A DNA stretch of 13,863 nt from positions 1 to 13,863 of the forward strand of contig NW_021826008.1 of NCBI RefSeq assembly GCF_006345805.1. The letters run 5' to 3'. The notes beneath the pieces were generated by a model, which saw nothing but the letters and a program-made list of their open reading frames with translations, made no database searches and had not been told where the DNA came from. The DNA comes from Octopus sinensis. Taxonomy: Eukaryota. Made by a program: the position numbers and the translations under genes. Shown one piece after another: positions 2,320-13,863 of this stretch; the stretch's first letter is position 1, and the number at the start of each line of letters is the position of its first letter.

Positions 2320-3000
2320 TTAATTAAATCTTTTTTGTGTGTCGCTTTCTTGCCTGCCGCATTTCCGCCTGCCGTATCTCCCGTATTCTAAGTTATTGCC
2401 CCGCATATACAAATCTGTAATGTCATCTAAATTTTTTGGATAATTGGATTTGGAAAATTCCCAGATTGCTGAATTAATCCCATTTAAAATTTCCTTCTTT
2501 AGTAACTGATAAGGCACTTTTCTTGTTGGCTTTCGTAAATCACGTGGGATTGATTTTACTTTCTCAATTTGGGAACAAAATTCCTCATAACATTTTCTAA
2601 AATTGGAGACTTCAGTTTTTGGGTCATTTGCATCAGATAATTTGTCCATGGAAATTTTAGCCTTTTTTCCGTTGACTTTCAATAACATCTTTATGTTAGA
2701 AACTGACTTGGTAGAAGAGAACTTTTCATTGAAAGCTTTTGTTATAAGAGGCCATCCTCCATACGGTATTCGATCGAATTTTGATTTAATAGCTTGAACT
2801 GCTTCATGGATCCATTCCAGTTTGTCATCCGTTTGTACTTGATCCATAATTGCTCGTAAAGATAGTAGTCTTGTTCGAAAAACAGGTTCTATAACACAGG
2901 GATGAGGTTCGATGTCGATTTCTTGAGCTTCATGCTGCCCCCTGACCACTTTCTCTACGTTAGTAGTGTTTTCTCTATCAATATTCTTAGCGATAATGCC
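2320..3000 (-). pseudogene. Probable N-terminal (Myb-like) region of an R4/NeSL-type non-LTR retrotransposon ORF, truncated before RT
   Basis: Long open frame with WPLITKAFNEKFSSTKSVSNIK (Myb/SANT-like W..I...FN..F pattern) and RKPTRKVP...IN...PKNLDDITDLY. No RT motifs follow. Assignment is by recalled resemblance only. Confidence 0.4.
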
Positions 3001-3099
3001 ATTTCTCTCACTAGTAGGGTACCATCCCTCGAACCCGTAGGTAAGCACTGGGTCGAAGCACGTTTTATAAACAAATAAAAACGTTTCCGGACTAAAGTG
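3001..3099 (-). mobile_element. Short LINE ORF2 post-RT (thumb) fragment
   Basis: Translates HFSPETFLFVYKTCFDPVLTYGFEGWY, matching the YK.xI.PxLxYG.ExW motif downstream of non-LTR RT domain 7. Confidence 0.6.
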
Positions 3100-3208
3100 G
3101 AAGTGAATTATGAATTTGATATTTTATGACTGTGTCAGAGAAAAACCCACCCCTGGCATTCGAGATCTGGAATATTAAGTTGTATTTAATCATTATTTAG
3201 CAAATTAA

Positions 3209-3415
3209 CTCCAAGATGACATTGAAAAGACTGCATCACAATTAACAGAGCTTGGTTCACTCTCTTTGGTTCGTACAGATCTTTTGTCATACTATATTGG
3301 TTTAAGTAAGTTCCACAGTCATCTGCCACCAATTTACTAAATAATTAAGATTAATTTATTCAAGTTTAATGCAACTTGGGTCACTCGTCTTCTGAAAAAG
3401 TTAAATTTGTTGACT
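3209..3415 (+). pseudogene. Possible CENP-B/Tc5-type HTH remnant of a pogo-like transposase
   Basis: One frame with a single TAA ending in FKFNATWVTRLLKKLNL, similar to the FKxSxxWxxRFxKRxxL motif. Confidence 0.25.
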
Positions 3416-3923
3416 TAAATAGCAATATCAAAAAAATGACAAATTGGGAAATTAATTTTCTTTAAAAATAAAATGAATAACAACGTCATTAAGAAATGCC
3501 AAATGGCATAAAAAAGCTCATTCGAAACGTAAAGAAAAAAAGTAAATTTACAAAAAATAACACTCATAGATGAATTAAAACACAAAACTGATTACCAACC
3601 CGTAATAGCGACCACTCCAATGCAGTTAACCATTATTGAACTCCAAAAACAAACCCGTAAACAGATGACCGTACAGGAGAAACTCCTGCAAGTGACAGTT
3701 TTGACGTTCTGTCCCAATCAGAGGCCAACTACTTAGTCCTAAACCAGAAATTACTTGACAGAGCTAAATAATCGAAAATCCACCAACATATGCCCCTTCA
3801 GAACACAGCCTTAGTCTTGAATCTATCAAAGCTCTAATTCAAAGAAAGCCTTACAAACCTTGTGTTAAACCACATTCAACAAGCGCGTTTGTACTTTCCT
3901 CAATTATATTTAGTATAATTTGT

Positions 3924-4306
3924 ATGTTTATATTTTAGCTGTAATCGCACTTTTGGTTCACCATAACGCATTCAGACCACAAATGAACGACATTAAGCCC
4001 ATTGAACAGATTTGTGAAAAAATGTCTCTACATATATTGATCACAAATAACCAAGTGAATGTCACATATATGAAGGCTCTGAATGCTGGATGGTTGGAAT
4101 ATGAGAATTCAGATGTCAACGAACTTAGATATTTTATTGGTTCGAATATAAAAAATGTCGGAATATTTGGACCTGGATATTATCTTGTGAATAGAAATGA
4201 TAAAGAAGGAACAAAATACATAATGCATAGATTTATTGGAAAATATGAATATCCGATGGGATTTGTGGAAATAGTTTGCAACAAATATTTGTTGCCTTTT
4301 AAGTAA
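3924..4306 (+). CDS. Small putative secreted protein (~128 aa), function unknown
   Basis: Open frame 3920-4306. ATG at 3924 joins it if one T is added to the T-run at 3933-3936, giving the hydrophobic leader MFIFLAVIALLV. AATAAA lies at 4325-4330 just after the stop. Confidence 0.5.
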
Positions 4307-4656
4307 ATTACTTTTTGATGTACAAATAAATTTATCTGAAAAAATTATCTTTTATAAATACAGATAAGCTGTTTTTAATCTAAATATTCTTTTTGTAGTG
4401 ATTAGGCAGAATATAAAAAGGAATGTCGCTGAACTAATTATTAATATCTGTAAGCACTTTACTAAACTGCCGGTGGTTGAGGGGATGCCCTCTGACCATA
4501 TTCAAAGAGAATTTGTAGTAGTTTTATAAAGATATCTTTACTTGTATCAGTTCGAGAAATTCTTCATAAATATTAAAATTTGAATTACAGGCTCTAACAA
4601 ATATTGCTAATTGTGCAATTTGCGCATTGGAGCTTCTTGGTTAATAAGCAACTTAA

Positions 4657-6165
4657 TACACTTTTTATCAAAAAATACAGATTTTAACTTATAAAAATCA
4701 AAATGAAGATGTTTCATGTCAGTATTTGGCTGATAGATTTTCCCATTTGTTTAAAAAGAAGATTTCCAGAAAAACAATTAATAATATTATTTTGAAAAAA
4801 GATTTTTTCTCAAAGAGTGTAAAAAACAAAATCTATCTTCAAAAAATGCGCATAGACTCAAGTTCCCACAGCTTGATGCTATGTTAGTTGAATGGATGGA
4901 TTCGATTGAGTCTAAAGGTAATTTGTACTAATTTATGATTAAGGTGGCTTTCTTAATGATGCTTTAATTTCAAATAAGGCTAATTTATTCGCAGCTGAAT
5001 TAAAACTGGATAATTTTAAAAACTCAAATGGATACCTTCATAAATTCAAAAAGAGGCATGGTTTTCGAATGACCAAGTTACATGGAGAAATGAGAACTAA
5101 TGATCCAGTAGATGTCGACTTATTTATCGAAAAATTCATAGAAATATCAAAGAGTTATAATGCCGATCAAATTTATAACTTGGACGAAACGGGATTGTAC
5201 TACAAGCTGATTCCTTCGAAGAGTATTTGTAGAAACAGATTTCAAGGATATAAAAATTTCAAAGATCGTGTTTCTATTATGCTATGTTCAAATATGAGTG
5301 GAAATCATAAATTGAAACCTGTGATGATCTCGAAACCTAAAATGCCAAGATGCTTTAAATCTTATGACTATAAATGTTTCATTGATTATTATAGCTCAAA
5401 ACGAGCTTGGATGACAGGAACAATTTTTACTAACTGGCTATTAAACTTTGATTACCATCTCAAAAATGAAAAAAAGCAAATTTTACTTCTCATGGACAAT
5501 TGTCCTTCACATTGTGTTCCATCAAATTTGGATAACATAAAAATATTGTTTTTTCCTCCAAATAGTACTGGTCTTATTCAACCTATAGATTTGGGTATAA
5601 TAAAAACATTTAAAACACATTTTACTTGACACAAGTTAATGTATTTGACTGATTTGTTGGAACAGCAAAATATTTCAGTATACAGTTCCTACAAAAAGTT
5701 AACTCTAAAGGATACTGTAATTTTCGTAAAAATGGCTTGGGAAGATGTGTCTGAAAAAACGATTGCAAATTGTTTCGGAATTTTAAGCAACCCATTCAAA
5801 AAGAATCATGTAGTTGAAGTTCAAGATATTGCAGTAGAAAAAACTGACATTTTTGATCCCTTAGAAGTCGAAAAATTTCTTAATTTTGAATATTCTGAAA
5901 ATGATACATTTCAAGACGTTGAGGATATTGAAAATATAAAAAATGAAGAAGAAGTAGAAGCTGAAGTAGAATCCAATGATTCAATTGACAAAGAAGACAT
6001 TGTGGTTAAGTTAACTAAAATTGAAAACGAGCTCCTAAAAACATTGAGAACGAACATGAAGTTCAATTGATTACATCCATAAGGCGCTATAAGGAAAATG
6101 TCATTAAAACTCAAAAAAAGCAGATGGGCATCCAATTCTACTTTAAGAACATTAATAATGCTTAA
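4657..6165 (+). pseudogene. pogo-type DD30D transposase (N-terminal HTH, CENP-B HTH, DDE_1 domain, acidic tail, PIP box)
   Basis: KFPQLDAMLVEW, FKNSNGYLHKFKKRHG, YNLDETGLYY, LLMDNCPSH and QPIDLGII, with 30 residues between the 2nd and 3rd Asp; C-terminal QMGIQFYF. Disrupted by frameshifts at ~4805 and ~6040 and by a TGA at 5627-5629. No start codon is visible. Confidence 0.93.
4918..4943 (+). other. 26-nt spliceosomal intron in the pogo transposase
   Basis: GTAATTTGTACTAATTTATGATTAAG has a GT donor, a TACTAAT branch-like motif and an AG acceptor. Removal joins ...EWMDSIESK-G-GFLNDALIS... in frame within the CENP-B HTH. Confidence 0.75.
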
Positions 6166-6359
6166 TTACTTAAAATTTTCTGGATAAAAGTTGTTCTTAT
6201 TCAAAATTTAATTTACACAAAAGATTGATTTTATTTCTCAAATTGGCCATTTCTCGAATTGACCACAAAAACACGTGGAACCAAAAATGGCCAATTTCAG
6301 AGGAGTCACTGTACCTTCGAAATAATTGTATGATTAGATTGATAATGCCTTTTAGGTTG

Positions 6360-6510
6360 TATTCTTTCTTGAAACATTCCAGTCCGCTGGTTATCACTTC
6401 ACAAAGTTGTTAAAAGATTTCATTTTTGAGATCGGATTTAATTTAGTTTCTCTTAAATGAGAAATTATTATAAATGCGGGCCTCGAAACGAAATGAGTTT
6501 GACACCCCTG
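6360..6510 (+). mobile_element. hAT (Charlie/Buster-type) remnant: RW-motif fragment plus right TIR
   Basis: YSFLKH/VRWLSLHKVVKRF (6360-6420, one frameshift) matches the hAT HxxVRWLSxxxVLxRF motif. GAGTTTGACACCCCTG (6495-6510) is the reverse complement of CAGGGGTGTCAAACTC and is followed by CTCTAGAT, fitting the NTCTAGAN target preference. Confidence 0.75.
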
Positions 6511-7204
6511 CTCTAGATAGCTGAAATAAGGATAAAAAGAAGTGCAATCAAAAAAAGGACAATACAACCGGCTACACAATCAAAATTGGAAAGCCTGACA
6601 ATATTCTTTTCTGCTTGTTTTTCATAACTCACTGCACATATTGACTTATTATAGGGTTGACTATCAAATTGGTATCTGGCCGTTTCATCATCATCGGTCA
6701 CCTACTACGTTCGTTTCTAATCCAAAATTTAATTTGTATAAAGAGGTAGATTTTCTCAGCCCACAGTTGAAAGATGATTCAAAATTGGGTGGGAAATAGA
6801 GTGTTGAAGACAAAAAAAACTTTGGAAACTGAAGCCTCTAGTATTTTTGATTGGCTTAACTCTGAAAATCACTAAGAAACTGAGGGCATCCCAAGAAAAG
6901 ATGGGAAAAACATCAAAACGCTTGAAAAGGAAAAAAGTTCTGCCCAACGCATGTGAAACAGTCCCTCAAAAGTCAGACCCGCCGCCACTATTGTACAGAC
7001 TTCGAACAGAAAGTTCAAACCTGAATTGAGTAAACTCATGAAATTCTACGCCGGAATCAGCCAAAAATCATCTAAAGATAAACTCATATATATATAAACA
7101 ATAAACCAAAAAAATCAACTCACGCATTTATACCTGCCAAAAGACCTTAACAACCAGAAGCACATCACCCCGATTCAATTCCTCACAAAAACTGCTCCCC
7201 GCCC

Positions 7205-8426
7205 GTTCTGCCAAATCTATGTAGATTCTTGATATGACAATTCCCAGACCCAATTACGGAGAGTCTGTCCTTCTGGAGCTTCATACACAACAAGACCAAA
7301 TGTGAAAGAATAAGACTCATGGCCAGGATCGCATGTAGCCCAGTTTTTGGCAGAAACACCATAAACAGCTTCCCGAGTCTAATTGAGAAGCCTTCTTTAC
7401 TCAATTTATCCTCCTCTACAAACACATTGCTGAAGGGGCTGATTAATAATAGAATGAAAGAGACATACACATTAACAACGAAGCTGTAAAGGATATTCTC
7501 ACAGTACATTTTGAAAACAAAAGTGACTTTTTTGACCACATGAGTTAAATATTGTTGGGCATTAACGAACGAGTGCGGAAAATCAGAAGAAAGCAATGGA
7601 CATATAACCTTGCTTGTAAAACAGGAGTACAACAGGTGGTCTATGACCGGCTCTGGACAACACGCGTATATTGGGAGTGAAACGTCAGAGCACACTTCTT
7701 TATATAAAAGCGCTGAAAAGTCAACATCTTTTTCTATATTGAATCCAGCACTTCGTTTAAGCCGTGCAATAAACTGGTTCATCAGGAAGAATTCAAATCT
7801 TACTTCCAGGGGCTCACTGATGGCATCAGCCTGTCATTCTTTTATAACACCATATTCAGGAAATACGAGAGAAAAGACTTGTATTACGCACACCGTATTG
7901 CAAGTGAATATTTGATGAACATAATGGATATGAAGACATTAAAACCATTGAACATTTTATACAATTCAGAGAACTTCGTCAAATACGTTCTTACAATAGC
8001 AAGCTTCAGGGGAGGAAGCAATCCCCCTTCTAGTAAATGCCTATCACAAACATTGAACAATGCACTTCAACACTTATACACGATGAAGCGAATGGACAAG
8101 GTACACCGAAGTGTACTATCACGGAAAATTATTATTTTAGAGACCCTATAATTTTAGGGGTGTTGCTGGTTGGCATGCATGTAGCAATCAATTACTTTGG
8201 TGGGGGAGAGATTGAAAAACTGGGAAAAGATTATATACAAGGTGTGATAGCAGAAATAATAAGGAATCAAACGATGGATACATTTTATGAAATGCAGACT
8301 CGAACTTTTGGAAAAAGAGTGATTGATTATGCACTTTGTGAGAGTGAAGTGAGACATGCATTGCGATCGATCGGAAAATTAACTGATATTCATCCACACT
8401 CTGACACATATAAATACAACGAGTAG
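7205..8426 (+). pseudogene. L: Endogenous viral element: fragmented rhabdovirus-like (Mononegavirales) L protein, capping/PRNTase and connector domains
   Basis: RFLI*QFPDPITESLSFWSFIH (7223-7288), AYIGSETSEHTS...ALRLSRAINWFI (7664-7783), YFQGLTDG (7801-7824), SNPPSSKCL and ALCESEVRHA (8331-8360). These match, in order, vesiculovirus L motifs as recalled: [34 protein letters not shown]...ATRLRDAISWFV, FLKGLLDG, SYPTSNRDM and LLCPEEIRHA. Confidence 0.9.
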
Positions 8427-8779
8427 AGTTAAAAAATGTTAAGTTTTTTAAATTTTTAGCAATTATCTTGAGTCAGTAATTAGTGTCAAACTAGGTGGGT
8501 CAACTATGTGTTTTAGGTGGTTTTGCTCGAAAGATATTGCTATGTCAAACAAGTATATGATGTGGACAATATTCACAACAATTTCTTTAACTGAAATGTA
8601 AAGAATTTTGTCTCTGTTCTTCATTTATTTGAAAAAAACATGCTTGACTTACTTTTTGAATTTGTGATGAACTGAAGCCGAACAAAGACGGCTTATTATT
8701 ACTACGCAATATTTGTAGTACATTTAATAATTATAAAGGAAAATTACAATTCGACGATTTAATCAGCGTCTTTATATTC

Positions 8780-9395
8780 TGGGAGAGAAAGGGAATACTT
8801 CTCCGCCAAGCACGGAGGGAGGAACCTTTCCGCCAAAATGTGGAACCTCCCGTAAAAACTAAGGGCACAAAGTTTAGGAGCAGTGAGTGAAATAAGCATG
8901 TCCGGTTGGAGTGACTGAGTGTTGTTATTCCCGTCCACCCGAGAGGAATATTCACACTCGCTACTTGTATTCCGGCTGTTGAAGAGTTACTGTCTGCATG
9001 TCAAAAAAAGAGCAAAAGCCATCGCAGCTCTCTGCCTCTTAGGAAGCATGCATCTGGACCCAAGAAGTTTTTTCTTCGTGTTCCACGCAACCATCCTATC
9101 AAGCTTGGTGTACGAGATGGAAGCGTGGTACTACTCGAAAGATCTTGAGAAAATTAACAAGAAATGCATAAAGATCCGGCGCTATGCTCTAAAGCTAGCT
9201 TACAGGCTTGACTCGCAAGGCCCGGTCCCAAGTTTGGCGGAGACCAAGTCCCCGGAGATACGGCAGGTCATTGAGAAATCTATCCGGTCTTTCTGGACAA
9301 GATCTCAACCTATTTCATTCTCTTCTTTGCAAACTTTCGGAACTGGCTTTCTACAAGGTGACCAATCATAGGAAAAAATTCCTGACAGCTCGGTA
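8780..9395 (+). mobile_element. LINE (non-LTR retrotransposon) ORF2 fragment, post-RT thumb region
   Basis: HVKKRAKAIAAL...FVFHATILSSLVYEMEAWY...RRYALKLAY...LAET is typical of the region after RT domain 7. The upstream REYFS...AKMWNL resembles the endonuclease-RT linker. The RT core is absent. Confidence 0.7.
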
Positions 9396-9399
9396 ATTT

Positions 9400-9760
9400 A
9401 ACTCGCGGATTTACGCCAAAGGCCACCTTGAGCGCTAATCACCTCGTTTTTTCCAGTAGTTTAATAATTCTTGCCTTAAAAGGGGACAAGATTTACCCTT
9501 CCAGCCTATACATCAGCACAGGAAGAATAGCTACTCGGAAAATGAATAGCACCGTCTCAGGGGGTAGGCGAAATTTAATAAGGCACATGATCATATGTGT
9601 GCACCGTTTTTCGTTACATTTTTCATTTTCAGGAAATTGGACTCCCAGGTATAAAAACGATTGGATCTTCCGAATATAGTCAATCGTGTATGGTAAGGTT
9701 TTTGCACTTCTTCCTGCTGATAATCGAGTGAGGGTGCACTTCTCAATTGACAGTCAAGTT
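9400..9760 (-). mobile_element. LINE ORF2 fragment, RT domains 6-7 plus thumb (missed by the ORF track)
   Basis: Minus-strand translation LTVN/EKCTL...IQSFLYLGVQF...RLPPETVLFIFRVAILPVLMYRLEG*...TR*LALKVAFGV. Confidence 0.75.
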
Positions 9761-10313
9761 ATTTACTCTAAATAGATTTTTATTGCGATATGAATTAAGA
9801 TATTGGTAATTTGTTGTATTTTATGCAGAAAAAGTTTCACTAAAACCATGCTGCAATGCGTAACAATAATTTTTTTATTAGAAATAATATTATCCATTAA
9901 CTTAAAATAATTCGATCGTCATTTATTTTATAAAAAGTACATTTTTATTTTAATACAAAGTAGTCGGTCCATTCAACTGCGTGGTTCATTTAATAGACGG
10001 TGAAATTAAATGTTATTTATTCTAATTTTTAAATGTTCTTGATTTATTGAATAAAATACAATAAATTAATTACATCAAGTCCACGTTATATTATTTTCTT
10101 GTGTTGTGTGCTTATGCTGTTAATTTTTTTAATTTTACTTTGCTATCATGTTTTATTTTAAAATTTTTCGTTTTTTTATTTGTTTGAAGATTAATTAAAC
10201 TGATTACTGGTAAAATATCTTTATAAAGTTTATTTTGCAAGTGTATTTATATTCATTTTTTCAATTATTTAATCTTCATTCATTTAGATTTTAAATTATT
10301 ATTATTTTTGGTA

Positions 10314-10768
10314 CATTCCTCCGACCCTGACGGGAAGTTTTGCTTGAGTTCAACCGATTTTGTCAAAGGAAATGTTCAGAACTGCTTCCGTGCAGGATTT
10401 CAATGATTTTTCCAAGGAAGACAGAATGTCTGAATGCGAGTATAGCAGGCACGGGAGCGTGTACAGAAGTTTCGGCATATGTATACTGCTTTTCATGAGG
10501 AAAAAAGCGATGTGCGAGTCTATCTCTAAGAGTCTGCTTGTGAGGTTACAGAATTACATGTCTTTCTTCGCCAGATGGGCCTTTAGGCCAGATGGGCTTA
10601 GAGGGCATCCAAGAAAGGTTGCTTCTAATGGCTGGGTTATTTGTGCACCAGTGATGAAACCTTGGATTATCATATTGACATTCGGAAAATCCGCCTCAAG
10701 GTAGTTGAGGTTTAGGAGTTCCGATTTATCCACGTTAACTTCTAGGCCAAGGTTGCGCAAAGCAGGGA
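10314..10768 (-). mobile_element. CRE-clade non-LTR retrotransposon, RT domains 6-7 and downstream region
   Basis: PALRNLGLEVNVDKSELL...FLGCPL...DSHIAFFLMK...PKLLYTL...G*TQAKLPVRVGG, with two in-frame stops. Confidence 0.85.
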
Positions 10769-11099
10769 ACCGAATAATGGAGGTATGGGTCGAGAGGGCT
10801 TCGGAGATTTCCCAGCCTGTCTTCCTCACGTACGGGAAAGAAACTTCACTTATCTTTGGGGATAAAGTCATCCGTACCCGAACAGGAGTCCAACAAGGCG
10901 ACCCTCTTGGACCATTACAGAATCAACACCAATATTCATGTGGAAAGAAAAATATATTCCTGAGAATAAATTTATATTCGCCTTAGCAATCGACGAGGCT
11001 GTACGATCAATCCTCTCACCATTCAATTTATGGTGCCTGGACGACGCGACCATTGGCGGCTCTGTGGAATCCATCACCGAGGACCTAGCCCGCCTAATC
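10769..11099 (+). mobile_element. CRE-clade RT domains 3-5, inverted relative to the adjacent piece
   Basis: LTYGKETSLIFGDKVIRTRTGVQQGDPLGPL, then an insert at ~10918-10973, then IFALAID...SPFNLWCLDDATIGG...EDLARLI. The YLDD catalytic motif reads CLDD here. Confidence 0.88.
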
Positions 11100-11270
11100 T
11101 CTTCACAAAATTATATGGAAAATCATGCATTTTGCCTTTATTTCATTATTTGAGGCAATGAATTTTCTATTTCGCGAACTACGCTTTTTATTCATTCTTT
11201 TAAAATAAGATGAATTCCTGTTTGCAAGACTAAAATTAAAGATTTTTTTATTCGTTTTTAAAAATAAATG

Positions 11271-11293
11271 CAGTCAAACCCCGTTTACTCGCC
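11271..11293 (+). mobile_element. Solo degenerate Tc1/pogo-like terminus
   Basis: CAGTCAAACCCCGTTTACTCGCC resembles pogo/mariner MITE ends. It is preceded by TG rather than TA, and no partner end was found. Confidence 0.25.
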
Positions 11294-12096
11294 AAATTTA
11301 GTAGGTAAATAAAACTCTATCTTTAAGTGTGAAATTTTTGTATGATTCATGAATGCCATATTCGCATTCAATTTTCTGAAGAACTTCATTAAATTTGAAT
11401 TCATCGAATTTAGTTATAAAGGAACGCATTATTATTTTATCCATAGACTGCAATATTGTTGAGGTGTTGACTGGGAGAAAAAAAATTCAATAAATTTTAA
11501 TTTGAATAATTTTTTTCAGAAGTTAATACATCATTGAGAACAAACAGCACCATATGAACATTTATGTTTAGAACACAAATGAAGACACAGTTCTCTGCTA
11601 AATAGTAGAACAAATAATGTCACTAAATGAGACTAAATATGAAACAAAGGACAATGAATAAAAAACGCAATTAGTTATTCTGATAATATGAGGGACCCCA
11701 ATCATATTTGCGGTAGTATTGAGTCGGATACATGAAATAATGAACAGAAGTATATAAACGTTTCGGATACTTTATTACCGTTGGATGTGACAATGATTGC
11801 ATTTGTGTCTTCTTATATTAGTTTGATGGCTAATCGTTTGTTTTGTGTGAGCAATTCCACTATTTTGTGAGGAACATGAAATGGTATCCAATAATTTTCT
11901 CTTCTTCAGTGTGTGTTATGTGCTTGAAATACATTTAAAGTAATACAATGAAAATTTGTTTATTTTACTAGTTAGGAAGACAGGAAAAACTAGCCTAAAA
12001 ATTAAGATATCAACAATATTCTTTTTATCAACAATATTCAATTATGTTGGTTAGCTAATAAATAATTATTTGACAGCAAAAACTTTATAGATCATC

Positions 12097-12137
12097 ATAT
12101 TTTTTCGATTTTAACGTGCAGTCGAATATAACACGCA
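12097..12137 (+). mobile_element. Degenerate pogo/Tc2-like terminus with tandem binding-site motif
   Basis: CATATTTTTTCGATTTTAACGTGCA-GTCGAATATAACACGCA contains two copies of TCGAwTwTAACryGCA, like CCGTATTT-type ends. No partner end was found. Confidence 0.3.
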
Positions 12138-12549
12138 GGCAACTTTAGGGCCAAAATATCTGGAAAAATGAAGTAATCAAATATAGTAAGCATCTAAAAT
12201 TTTGCGCTGACAAAAATCAGAAATTTCACTTTGATGACTTTTTTGAACGTTGCGGTATAACTTACTCGCCATGTTGCTTGTACAATGTCTAAAACTGAAC
12301 TGAGGGAGAGTGAACTGAGACGAGTACAAGGCTAAAGAGGAAACAGTGGTTGTTCGGCTTCCCGATCGGTTTTACGAAATAAAGTAAAATCGAGAATTTA
12401 TAATCGTACCAGCAAAAATTGGTAATTTATTTTAGTTATTGATTATTTACAAAAATAATTAGTAAAAAATTAATTATAAAATGCACCCCATTTATTGGAA
12501 TTAATTATATAACAAAAAAAGACAACTATCATGAGGAAAAAAAATTATA

Positions 12550-13793
12550 CAGTCCCGTCCAAATGTTAGAGGCACCCTATTTTTTCCCTAAAAAGGCACT
12601 TATTTATTATTTTTCGAAAGATTTCAAAGAATAATTTAAGTTTTTAAAGGAAATTAAACATTTCCAAAGTTTTTATAAATATTCGACCGATAGTATTCTC
12701 AAACTTGAAAACAAAAAATAATTGGTCGCTCATATGTTAGAGGCACCTATGTAAAAAGCAATAATTCTATAATTTATTATTATTAATTCTAATAAAAAAT
12801 TCAAATGCCTCGTGTATCAGTTTATAACAGGTTTCTCGTCATCGAAAAATTAAAATTTGGCGAATCTTAGGTGAAAATATCCAAAGATTTGGGAATCGGA
12901 CGCATTGCAGTGAAAAAACCAAAATTGACTGCATCTCAGGTTGAAAAAGGTATACATGGTGTCTTACTAAAATTCCGTGGAATCAAGACGACTGGAATTT
13001 AGTGATATTTTCTGATGAATGCCGGATTCAGTTAAATCAAATGTCTAGGCAATACATAAGAAGACCCCCTGGATCAAAATTACAGAAAGAATATTCAATT
13101 TAAACTGTGAAATTCCCTTTATCAATTACGATATGGGGAGCAATTAAAAGCAATGGGCAAAGATCAATTGTCCTTTGCCGAAAAACAGTTGACTCCGCCG
13201 AATATCAACGCGTTATAAAAGAAGGATTTGAAAATTTTTATGAAGAAAATTATTTTCTTCAACAAGATGGAGCAACATGTCATACATCAAAATCCACTAG
13301 AGCGTTTATGGCCGAAAACAACATAAAACTCATGGAAAAATGGCCAAGTCAATCTCCTGACTTAAATATAATTGAAAATCTATGGGCAATTTTAAAAAAG
13401 AAGTTAAAAATTGTGGAGCATCAACGATTCAAAAATTATGGAATGAAACAAAGAAGGCCTGGGAAAACATTGATACAGGTGTGGTTATTAAGCTTTTTGA
13501 GTCAATTCCAAGAAGAATATCTTCGGTAGTCATAAATAATGGAGGAATGACTAAATATTAAATTTTTGGATAATTTTGTCTTTCGTTATTGAAATGTGCC
13601 TCTAACATATGAACGATGTATTATTTTGAGTTTCTTAGTAAATACACATTATAAACTAAATGTGCTCAAAAATTTTAGGTTAAGATTTTTTATTCAATAG
13701 TTTGTTATTAACAAAAAACTTTTTTCAAAAAATGACAAATAAGTGCCTTTTTTAGGAAAAAAATAGGGTGCCTCTAACATTTGTACGGGACTG
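12550..13793 (+). mobile_element. Tc1-like transposon with IR/DR ends, 1244 bp, internally deleted
   Basis: TA at 12548-12549 and 13794-13795. ~56-bp TIRs CAGTCCCGT(C/A)CAAATGTTAGAGGCACCCTATTTTTT...GGCACTTATTT. Core ATGTTAGAGGCAC at 12563-12575 and 12734-12746, and inverted at 13596-13608 and 13768-13780. Confidence 0.97.
12805..13561 (+). pseudogene. Tc1-family DD35E transposase pseudogene
   Basis: MPRVS...HTH start, KKP, WNLVIFSDE, IWGAI, FLQQDGATCH, WPSQSPDLNIIENLW and terminal GGMTKY*. Stops at 12868 and 13101, frameshifts at ~12948 and ~13399, and a deletion at ~12900. Confidence 0.95.
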
Positions 13794-13863
13794 TATAACA
13801 AAAGTCTGTATGTTATAATCAACACTATTTATTAAAAGAAACAAAATTTAACTTAAGCTAGCT

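Follow-up and report, generated by a model that had tools for sequence, protein, structure and literature searches.

An endogenous rhabdovirus L fragment in an octopus assembly and its probable host, a co-sequenced dicyemid parasite

Endogenous rhabdovirus elements (EVEs) have been described from Aedes and other arthropods, where the relevant sections of the report on these NIRVS (PMC5497376) depict L and G fragments that are duplicated, rearranged and embedded in transposon-rich DNA, as is also the case for the locus studied here. The same sections mention an association with LTR/gypsy elements and no P or M integrations, whereas a sister insert of our locus, on contig C9340, has P-like, M-like, G and L genes with their junctions and is bordered by non-LTR tails. 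Among viruses, the closest counterpart is Betaplatrhavirus, which passages of PMC12451637 describe as a genus of cestode and trematode viruses and whose hosts, according to that source and to passages of PMC9241645, are parasitic spiralian worms. Triaenorhabdovirus 2 and Beihai dimarhabdovirus 1 of this group were observed to be the best or near-best matches to our long L pieces (42-54% identity, polymerase core), and Psilorhabdovirus 1 and 2, Himastelon rhabdovirus 1 and Eptesicus fuscus rhabdovirus were also near-best. The EVE clade differs in being long-branched and known only as DNA fossils, while the part of PMC9241645 on this point reports flatworm rhabdoviruses to be absent from available flatworm genomes. 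It also differs in its host, since the genus is tied to cestodes, trematodes or worm-infested animals and the host evidence here points to a dicyemid. The only significant matches in the structure database were the L proteins of VSV and rabies virus (PDB 5a22 and 6ueb), with which the fragment shares the GxxT motif and the domain order, whereas identity in the matched blocks is only about 35-45% and the window is without the GDN core and the HR motif.

The window is the entire 13.9-kb contig C2479 (13,863 nucleotides) of a 2.72-Gb Octopus sinensis assembly, and positions 7212-8425 of its plus strand hold, almost certainly, a non-functional, frameshifted endogenous rhabdovirus L fragment in mRNA sense. 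An initial annotation, made from the letters alone, had placed the element at 7205-8426; the locus was found to be right and its ends were corrected by alignment to a paralogue on contigs C12603 and C8999. Five motif blocks in L order had also been claimed. The order is indeed colinear with L and three of the blocks are significant alone, but the series is interrupted by two internal deletions, with about 100 residues gone at ~7544 and about 200 at ~7800, and ~710 L residues are represented by 1.2 kb. The VSV L equivalents of the window are 891-~1000, 1121-1197 and 1393-~1600, and a profile of 120 L proteins places it at VSV 891-976, 1121-1197 and 1393-1541.

Block 1 (7214-7465, +, VSV L 891-976) scored 64.9 bits against this profile and contains FPDPITESLSFW at 7241-7276, while block 3 (7545-7804, +, VSV L 1121-1197) belongs to the capping domain, scored 54.2 bits and carries GSET at 7673-7684. 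Both motifs lie where the annotation had put them, in plus-strand frame 2. Block 4 (7780-8148, +, VSV L ~1393-1510) falls in the connector-domain region and scored 16.2 bits, with no Pfam or PDB match to this block alone. As the highest score among 100 codon shuffles, our null, was 1.4 bits, blocks 1, 3 and 4 are each significant on their own. Block 2 (7466-7544, +, ~L 977-1000) is short, lies in a different frame and terminates at the first internal deletion, and block 5 (8149-8425, +, to ~L 1600) scored -0.8 bits, is not significant alone and has weak tupavirus matches. Their backing comes from DNA identity to the C12603 paralogue, whose L match extends to both sides: it is 91% identical through 7544 and continues to L 1056, and it is 95% identical over block 5 and runs on into L 1627-1698. 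Pieces were assigned to the capping domain, the connector and the linker after the connector by what we take to be the VSV L domain limits.

Profile searches agree with the annotation in calling the element rhabdovirus-like. The Mononegavirales capping domain, proposed there as a check, was matched above cut-off by 7544-7912 (PF14318 positions 43-127, E 5.1e-10), which also corresponds to rabies L 1133-1211. Positions 7238-7486 correspond to PF00946 902-967 below the cut-off (E 2.6e-4) and to VSV L 900-966 at E 5.7e-9. At E<0.01 the first block matched 116 of 124 L proteins and the GSET block 107 of 124. The PF00946 and PF14318 domains occur in Mononegavirales L order, and the top matches in the PDB and homologue searches were rhabdoviruses only.

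The fragment encodes no working enzyme, because it is broken by frameshifts and stops and the HR motif is absent. The fragment begins downstream of the GDN core, and the HR motif (VSV 1227) went with the second deletion, region VSV 1198-1392 being absent. Neither the HR motif nor the open frame of an active PRNTase was found in the window, and the capping block contains no HR.

The EVE is integrated in cellular DNA with host flanks, as had been proposed. Window positions 2383-13863 (~11.5 kb) were found to be colinear with the 1.03-Mb contig C8702 at 93-99.7% identity, except for four insertions in C8702. One of these, inside the EVE, is a 1.76-kb hAT element with a dimerisation match (PF05699, E 1.4e-4), terminal inverted repeats and a flanking 8-bp target duplication; the site is single, and hence empty, in the window (7484-7491, +). 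In addition, a short-read contig is identical to 7494-8332 (839 nt) at single-copy depth (55.8 versus 51.5 at a unique flank). The short-read run is probably from the same sample as the assembly, and all EVE data come from one sample; the sequencing runs listed include one DNA run with the EVE and no RNA run, and two other runs of this sample contain next to no EVE sequence. The outer EVE ends fall in repeats with a depth of >4,000, and no short-read contig bridges either outer junction, as might be the case if the assembly were chimeric or contaminated by RNA. We assign this explanation a negligible probability, since the locus is present with shared flanks on four contigs, one copy has taken up a DNA transposon, and the deletions and stops recur in a second library.

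Contigs C12603 and C8999 (99% alike) carry a duplicate of the EVE with its flanks, 91-97% identical to the window, which retains L 775-1056 and ~1590-1698. The 4 synonymous and 11 non-synonymous differences between window and duplicate over 106 codons are small counts that fit neutral decay, and two haplotypes together with a diverged duplicate imply many generations, albeit within a single sample. Both ends of the EVE in the window are secondary, contrary to the idea that they are the original integration junctions, and therefore they cannot test the integration mechanism. On the left, repeat matches and the paralogue alignment show that a multi-copy host repeat (6867-7206, +) was joined to the EVE by a later deletion with 5 nt of filler, and on the right a high-copy host repeat (8421-8502, strand unassigned) inserted later and truncates it. 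Deletion junctions at C12603:122700 and at window 7207-7211 carry short filler or a 19-nt local duplication, which we take to be like microhomology-type end joining. Elsewhere in the window, a tandem array of about ten ~94-nt units (755-1730) has a 91% match on C8702 at a different position relative to the EVE. At 12545-13798 a Tc1-like element has terminal inverted repeats, and its DDE_3 transposase is frameshifted. Non-LTR retrotransposon fragments were observed at 10314-11150, 8919-9371 and 2320-3123, the first of which has been rearranged and belongs to the type that forms the tails at the junctions of sister EVEs.

The annotation had suspected a tiny-intron lineage as host. This part holds, and the host is apparently not the main organism of the assembly: marker sequences make it very probable that it is a dicyemid, a kidney parasite sequenced along with the octopus. 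Excision of a predicted 26-nt GT-AG intron (4918-4943, +), our host marker in the window, joins the two halves of a pogo-like transposase (4657-6070) in frame; the transposase also has one in-frame stop at 5627-5629. On C8702, a proteasome alpha gene is interrupted by five introns (24, 26, 24, 26 and 25 nt) whose excision opens 185 codons, and inspection by eye gave four more introns of 22-32 nt in two genes located across the EVE from it. Published values for Dicyema, from the portions of each source on these points, are an intron length of 26.2 ± 1.9 nt (PMC2222250), a median of 27 nt (PMC6543705) and a genome with 36.7% GC of which half is repeats (PMC6736024); the GC content of C8702 is 37.2%. 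A genome-wide scan of GT..AG distances gave no short-intron peak in any set, which counts against the host assignment; the hand-found introns have degenerate 5' ends of a kind that the scan excluded. Four of five tiny introns at L062:5993-6528 begin with GTCT, GTTC, GTTG and GTTT, which suggests weak sequence constraint beyond GT..AG and length. A hAT-like gene on contig C1618 also seems to contain an intron of ~30 nt.

Two 18S types were found in the assembly, a GC-rich one of 2.6 kb on chromosome-scale contigs and one of 1,667 nt on C1618. With the dicyemid primers R2 and F3 given in the supplement of PMC6778094, the 1,667-nt type matches R2 exactly and F3 with 2 mismatches, and the chromosomal type has no R2 match within 3 mismatches. 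No third type occurs among 16 matches (12 scored candidates) and 40 matches listed. A myxozoan host was dropped on the 18S result. A different small-intron animal parasite, such as a flatworm larva bearing ordinary platrhavirus fossils, would agree with the closest viruses coming from cestodes, trematodes and probable monogeneans; the dicyemid primer sites, the introns of 22-32 nt and the presence of just two 18S types make it quite improbable.

The dicyemid-type 18S lies on C1618 and other unplaced contigs and not on C8702, and its tie to C8702 is one of shared repeats and gene style, not physical. Repeats flanking the EVE also occur on contigs with the short 18S (C12762, C8598, C7755, C7757 and C1794). 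On the chromosome-scale contigs C1-C30 they were found in 0 of 43 and 0 of 40 matches listed, the latter for the right-hand repeat. We noticed many degenerate 18S copies scattered over the parasite contigs. On C1618 (L050:3360-3680) the dicyemid-type 18S is followed not by 5.8S but by a histone H3-like fragment and a hAT element, and a 78% 18S fragment on C12603 was indistinguishable from host-type copies and so was left unused.

That the EVE belongs to the octopus itself is largely refuted and must be regarded as very improbable. Octopus chromosomes do carry rhabdovirus fossils (on C23 and C9), and one source labels as octopus an innexin encoded on C8702, a gene-dense contig where 25 of the 145 ORFs scanned, the longest of 243, match host families. 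No other sequence among the best 120 of 617 matches, many of them unnamed, exceeds 46% identity to this innexin, and among these no name of another cephalopod and none of Dicyema was found. Against an octopus origin, proteasome exons are kilobases apart on the chromosomes and nearly contiguous on the unplaced contigs, and microsatellites make up 6.2% of 60 kb of C23 versus at most 0.09% of the EVE contigs; the repeat counts on C1-C30 point the same way. As separate observations, the unplaced contigs (e.g. C8702, C12603, C8694, C12459 and C1618) look like a dicyemid-like genome inside the octopus assembly, with contigs up to ~1 Mb, and at least one protein of this genome carries an octopus label in public databases.

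The window EVE was observed to be one among many integrations and not a lone event. PF00946 gave at least 33 matches, which are spread over 16 contigs and of which 29 lie outside the chromosomes, and a glycoprotein query gave 19 matches on 15 contigs, none chromosomal. The loci fall in lineage A (the window group, C8694, C8318 and C4577/C9340, with 77-95% amino-acid identity), lineage B (C10696, C10880, C12459, C4523 and others) and lineage C (C9480/C12600). Comparison of the loci gave saturated synonymous sites (pS 0.64-1.1) and a pN of 0.045-0.13, which indicates that they diverged as viruses under selection and were integrated separately. By this comparison of sequences we count at least nine independent L integrations of three lineages in the putative dicyemid genome. 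The count (4 + 4 + 1) includes only mutually overlapping, saturated pairs, of which one rests on 20 codons. A common origin of the window and the C9340/C4577 insert in a single integration that was split was weakly rejected, at pS 0.9 over only 20 codons. Identical open L pieces of 294 codons lie 17 kb apart on C12459, at 192 kb and 209 kb (L032, L033), and represent either a recent segmental duplication or an assembly duplicate. PF14314 had no match in the genome, and its controls were likewise without a match.

Two fossils were noticed on octopus chromosomes. The first, at 23.140 Mb of C23 (L085:8-1659) in microsatellite-rich DNA, is an L fossil spanning VSV ~92-712 that groups inside Alpharhabdovirinae near an unclassified Rhabdoviridae sp., apart from the parasite's clade. 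The second is a decayed nucleocapsid match with nine stops (C9:72705869-72706150, L132). This was the single match to PF00945 (N), which gave none on the parasite contigs, where divergence may hide N.

In trees of 383 polymerase-core columns (IQ-TREE), the EVEs formed one clade with support of 99/98 (LG+G4, 28 rows) and 97/96 (mixture model, 23 rows), in line with the divergent, possibly undescribed rhabdovirus that the annotation had anticipated. The rows came from a set of 55, from which near-duplicates, a short EVE, two long branches and the plant outgroups were removed. In a FastTree run, the piece from the window itself falls with C8694 inside the EVE clade. Sister to this clade, with support of 94/89 and 92/90, are Triaenorhabdovirus 2, Beihai dimarhabdovirus 1 and an unnamed sequence, and the clade nests among platrhaviruses and Alpharhabdovirinae, with rhabdoviruses as the only outgroups. 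AU tests reject none of three other placements, with p values of 0.23 when the genus excludes the EVEs, 0.23 when the EVEs are joined to Alpharhabdovirinae and 0.083 when they are joined to the trematode group. Therefore, the clade was not filed in Betaplatrhavirus, a genus that was itself not recovered as a single clade in our trees. The clade may lie inside or beside Betaplatrhavirus, the sister group named above being one of several placements that fit. Among 1.84 billion representatives searched with a lineage-B piece, none was above 40% identity. The virus represents an undescribed clade near Betaplatrhavirus that appears new in the literature searched.

A sister insert, on C9340 (L095:1640-8160, ~6.5 kb, lineage A), crosses several rhabdovirus genes. 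It was observed to contain, in this order, the end of a first ORF (129 aa), a 427-aa ORF, a 260-aa ORF, a frameshifted G and, with one deletion, the initial third of L, so that five ORFs occupy the places expected under an N-P-M-G-L order. The G gene (PF00974, E 1.2e-11; PF24833, E 2.8e-7) lies upstream of L in this sister insert, and its fragment had no usable match in the ESM Atlas. None of the first three ORFs has a Pfam match, so the names P-like and M-like go by position; the 427-aa and 260-aa ORFs are open. Three matches to TGA7...AACA, which we take to be the rhabdovirus stop/start gene-junction consensus, each fall between ORFs, and a fourth A7 run is without AACA; the pattern occurs in 5 of 140 loci, two of which overlap this insert. 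As the insert crosses gene borders, its template was presumably a genome-length RNA and not a single mRNA.

Each end of the C9340 insert is joined to the 5'-truncated 3' part of a non-LTR element, with both tails outward. One further direct LINE-tail junction was found on C9497, and for the G piece on C8694 a LINE tail is ~80 nt away. The element has an RVT_1 domain and is presumably a restriction-like-endonuclease (CRE/R2-type) LINE. The enzymes of such LINEs tend to jump between RNA templates. A rhabdovirus of the undescribed clade would have replicated in dicyemid cells, where a host non-LTR retrotransposon may have reverse-transcribed its RNA. To judge from the sister loci, this would most likely have happened by template jumping during integration: the enzyme would prime at the insertion site, copy the LINE tail and then jump onto viral RNA. 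Comparison of the copies shows that the insert at the window's locus covered at least L 775-1698 and was duplicated with its flanks as C12603/C8999, after which different parts were lost and transposons gained in each copy.

We favour this capture by LINE template jumping slightly. No target duplication was seen, and the jump model stays a proposal, with a little better than an even chance. Direct LINE abutments make up 3 of about 48 EVE ends (24 distinct viral stretches, hand count), and the window's own ends have no LINE tail. Somewhat short of an even chance is that cDNA made by any reverse transcriptase was patched into a DNA break and that the LINE tails come from later insertion or deletion: for about 44 of the 48 ends the nearest 100 nt contain no LINE tail, transposons are dense in this genome, and mosquito EVEs associate with LTR elements in the sections of PMC5497376 on that subject. 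This has to account for three direct abutments with all tails outward, for which the probability of at least three is 5e-4 at a background of 16 fragments per 240 kb and 0.04 at five times that background (46 ends assumed, threshold post hoc); moreover, most EVE ends are visibly secondary. Taken together, we have considerable confidence in the full account of a dead EVE in a dicyemid nuclear genome, from an undescribed clade near Betaplatrhavirus and captured by a non-LTR element. A present role as a source of antiviral small RNA is a doubtful candidate.

It is likely that the virus infected dicyemids. Dicyemids live in the urine of their host, and an octopus or prey virus whose RNA was taken up by the parasite could have left the same EVE. 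Rhabdoviruses have reportedly been found in cephalopod transcriptomes, in a set ascribed to Rey-Campos in 2023 that may already include relatives under a cephalopod host label. Flatworm rhabdoviruses can also pass to the parasitised host, according to passages of PMC9241645. We consider such uptake unlikely, as at least nine integrations of three lineages lie in a small genome, the clade was not found on octopus chromosomes, where the C23 L fossil is of another clade, and the nearest relatives are viruses of parasitic worms.

Rhabdovirus EVEs are already a known kind, and the host phylum and the virus clade appear to be new in the literature searched. That literature yielded no paper that treats a dicyemid virus or these EVEs, most subscription journals being outside its scope, and neither 'Octopus' nor 'Dicyem' occurs in two supplements of PMC12548735. 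More tentatively, dicyemids might be hosts to a rhabdovirus lineage of genus rank that is old and diverse and lies near the base of the group with lyssaviruses and vesiculoviruses. LINE template jumps, some of them made from both ends and onto RNA of genome and of antigenome sense, might bring this lineage into their germline time and again and leave a fossil density far above that of the octopus, and some cephalopod-ascribed rhabdoviruses might then be dicyemid viruses.

If the account given here is true, the fossils extend the host range of Rhabdoviridae by a phylum (Dicyemida). The part of PMC9241645 on the origin of flatworm rhabdoviruses argues that these gave rise to vertebrate-infecting ones, and because the EVE clade sits on the flatworm-rhabdovirus branch, this 'parasite origin' idea could be tested on another parasite group that is unrelated to flatworms. 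Octopus data can include viral and host genes that stem from the kidney parasite, and the octopus assembly would provide a dicyemid genome in contigs of up to 1 Mb. In addition, the virus-LINE junctions offer clean material on how RNA viruses become endogenous.
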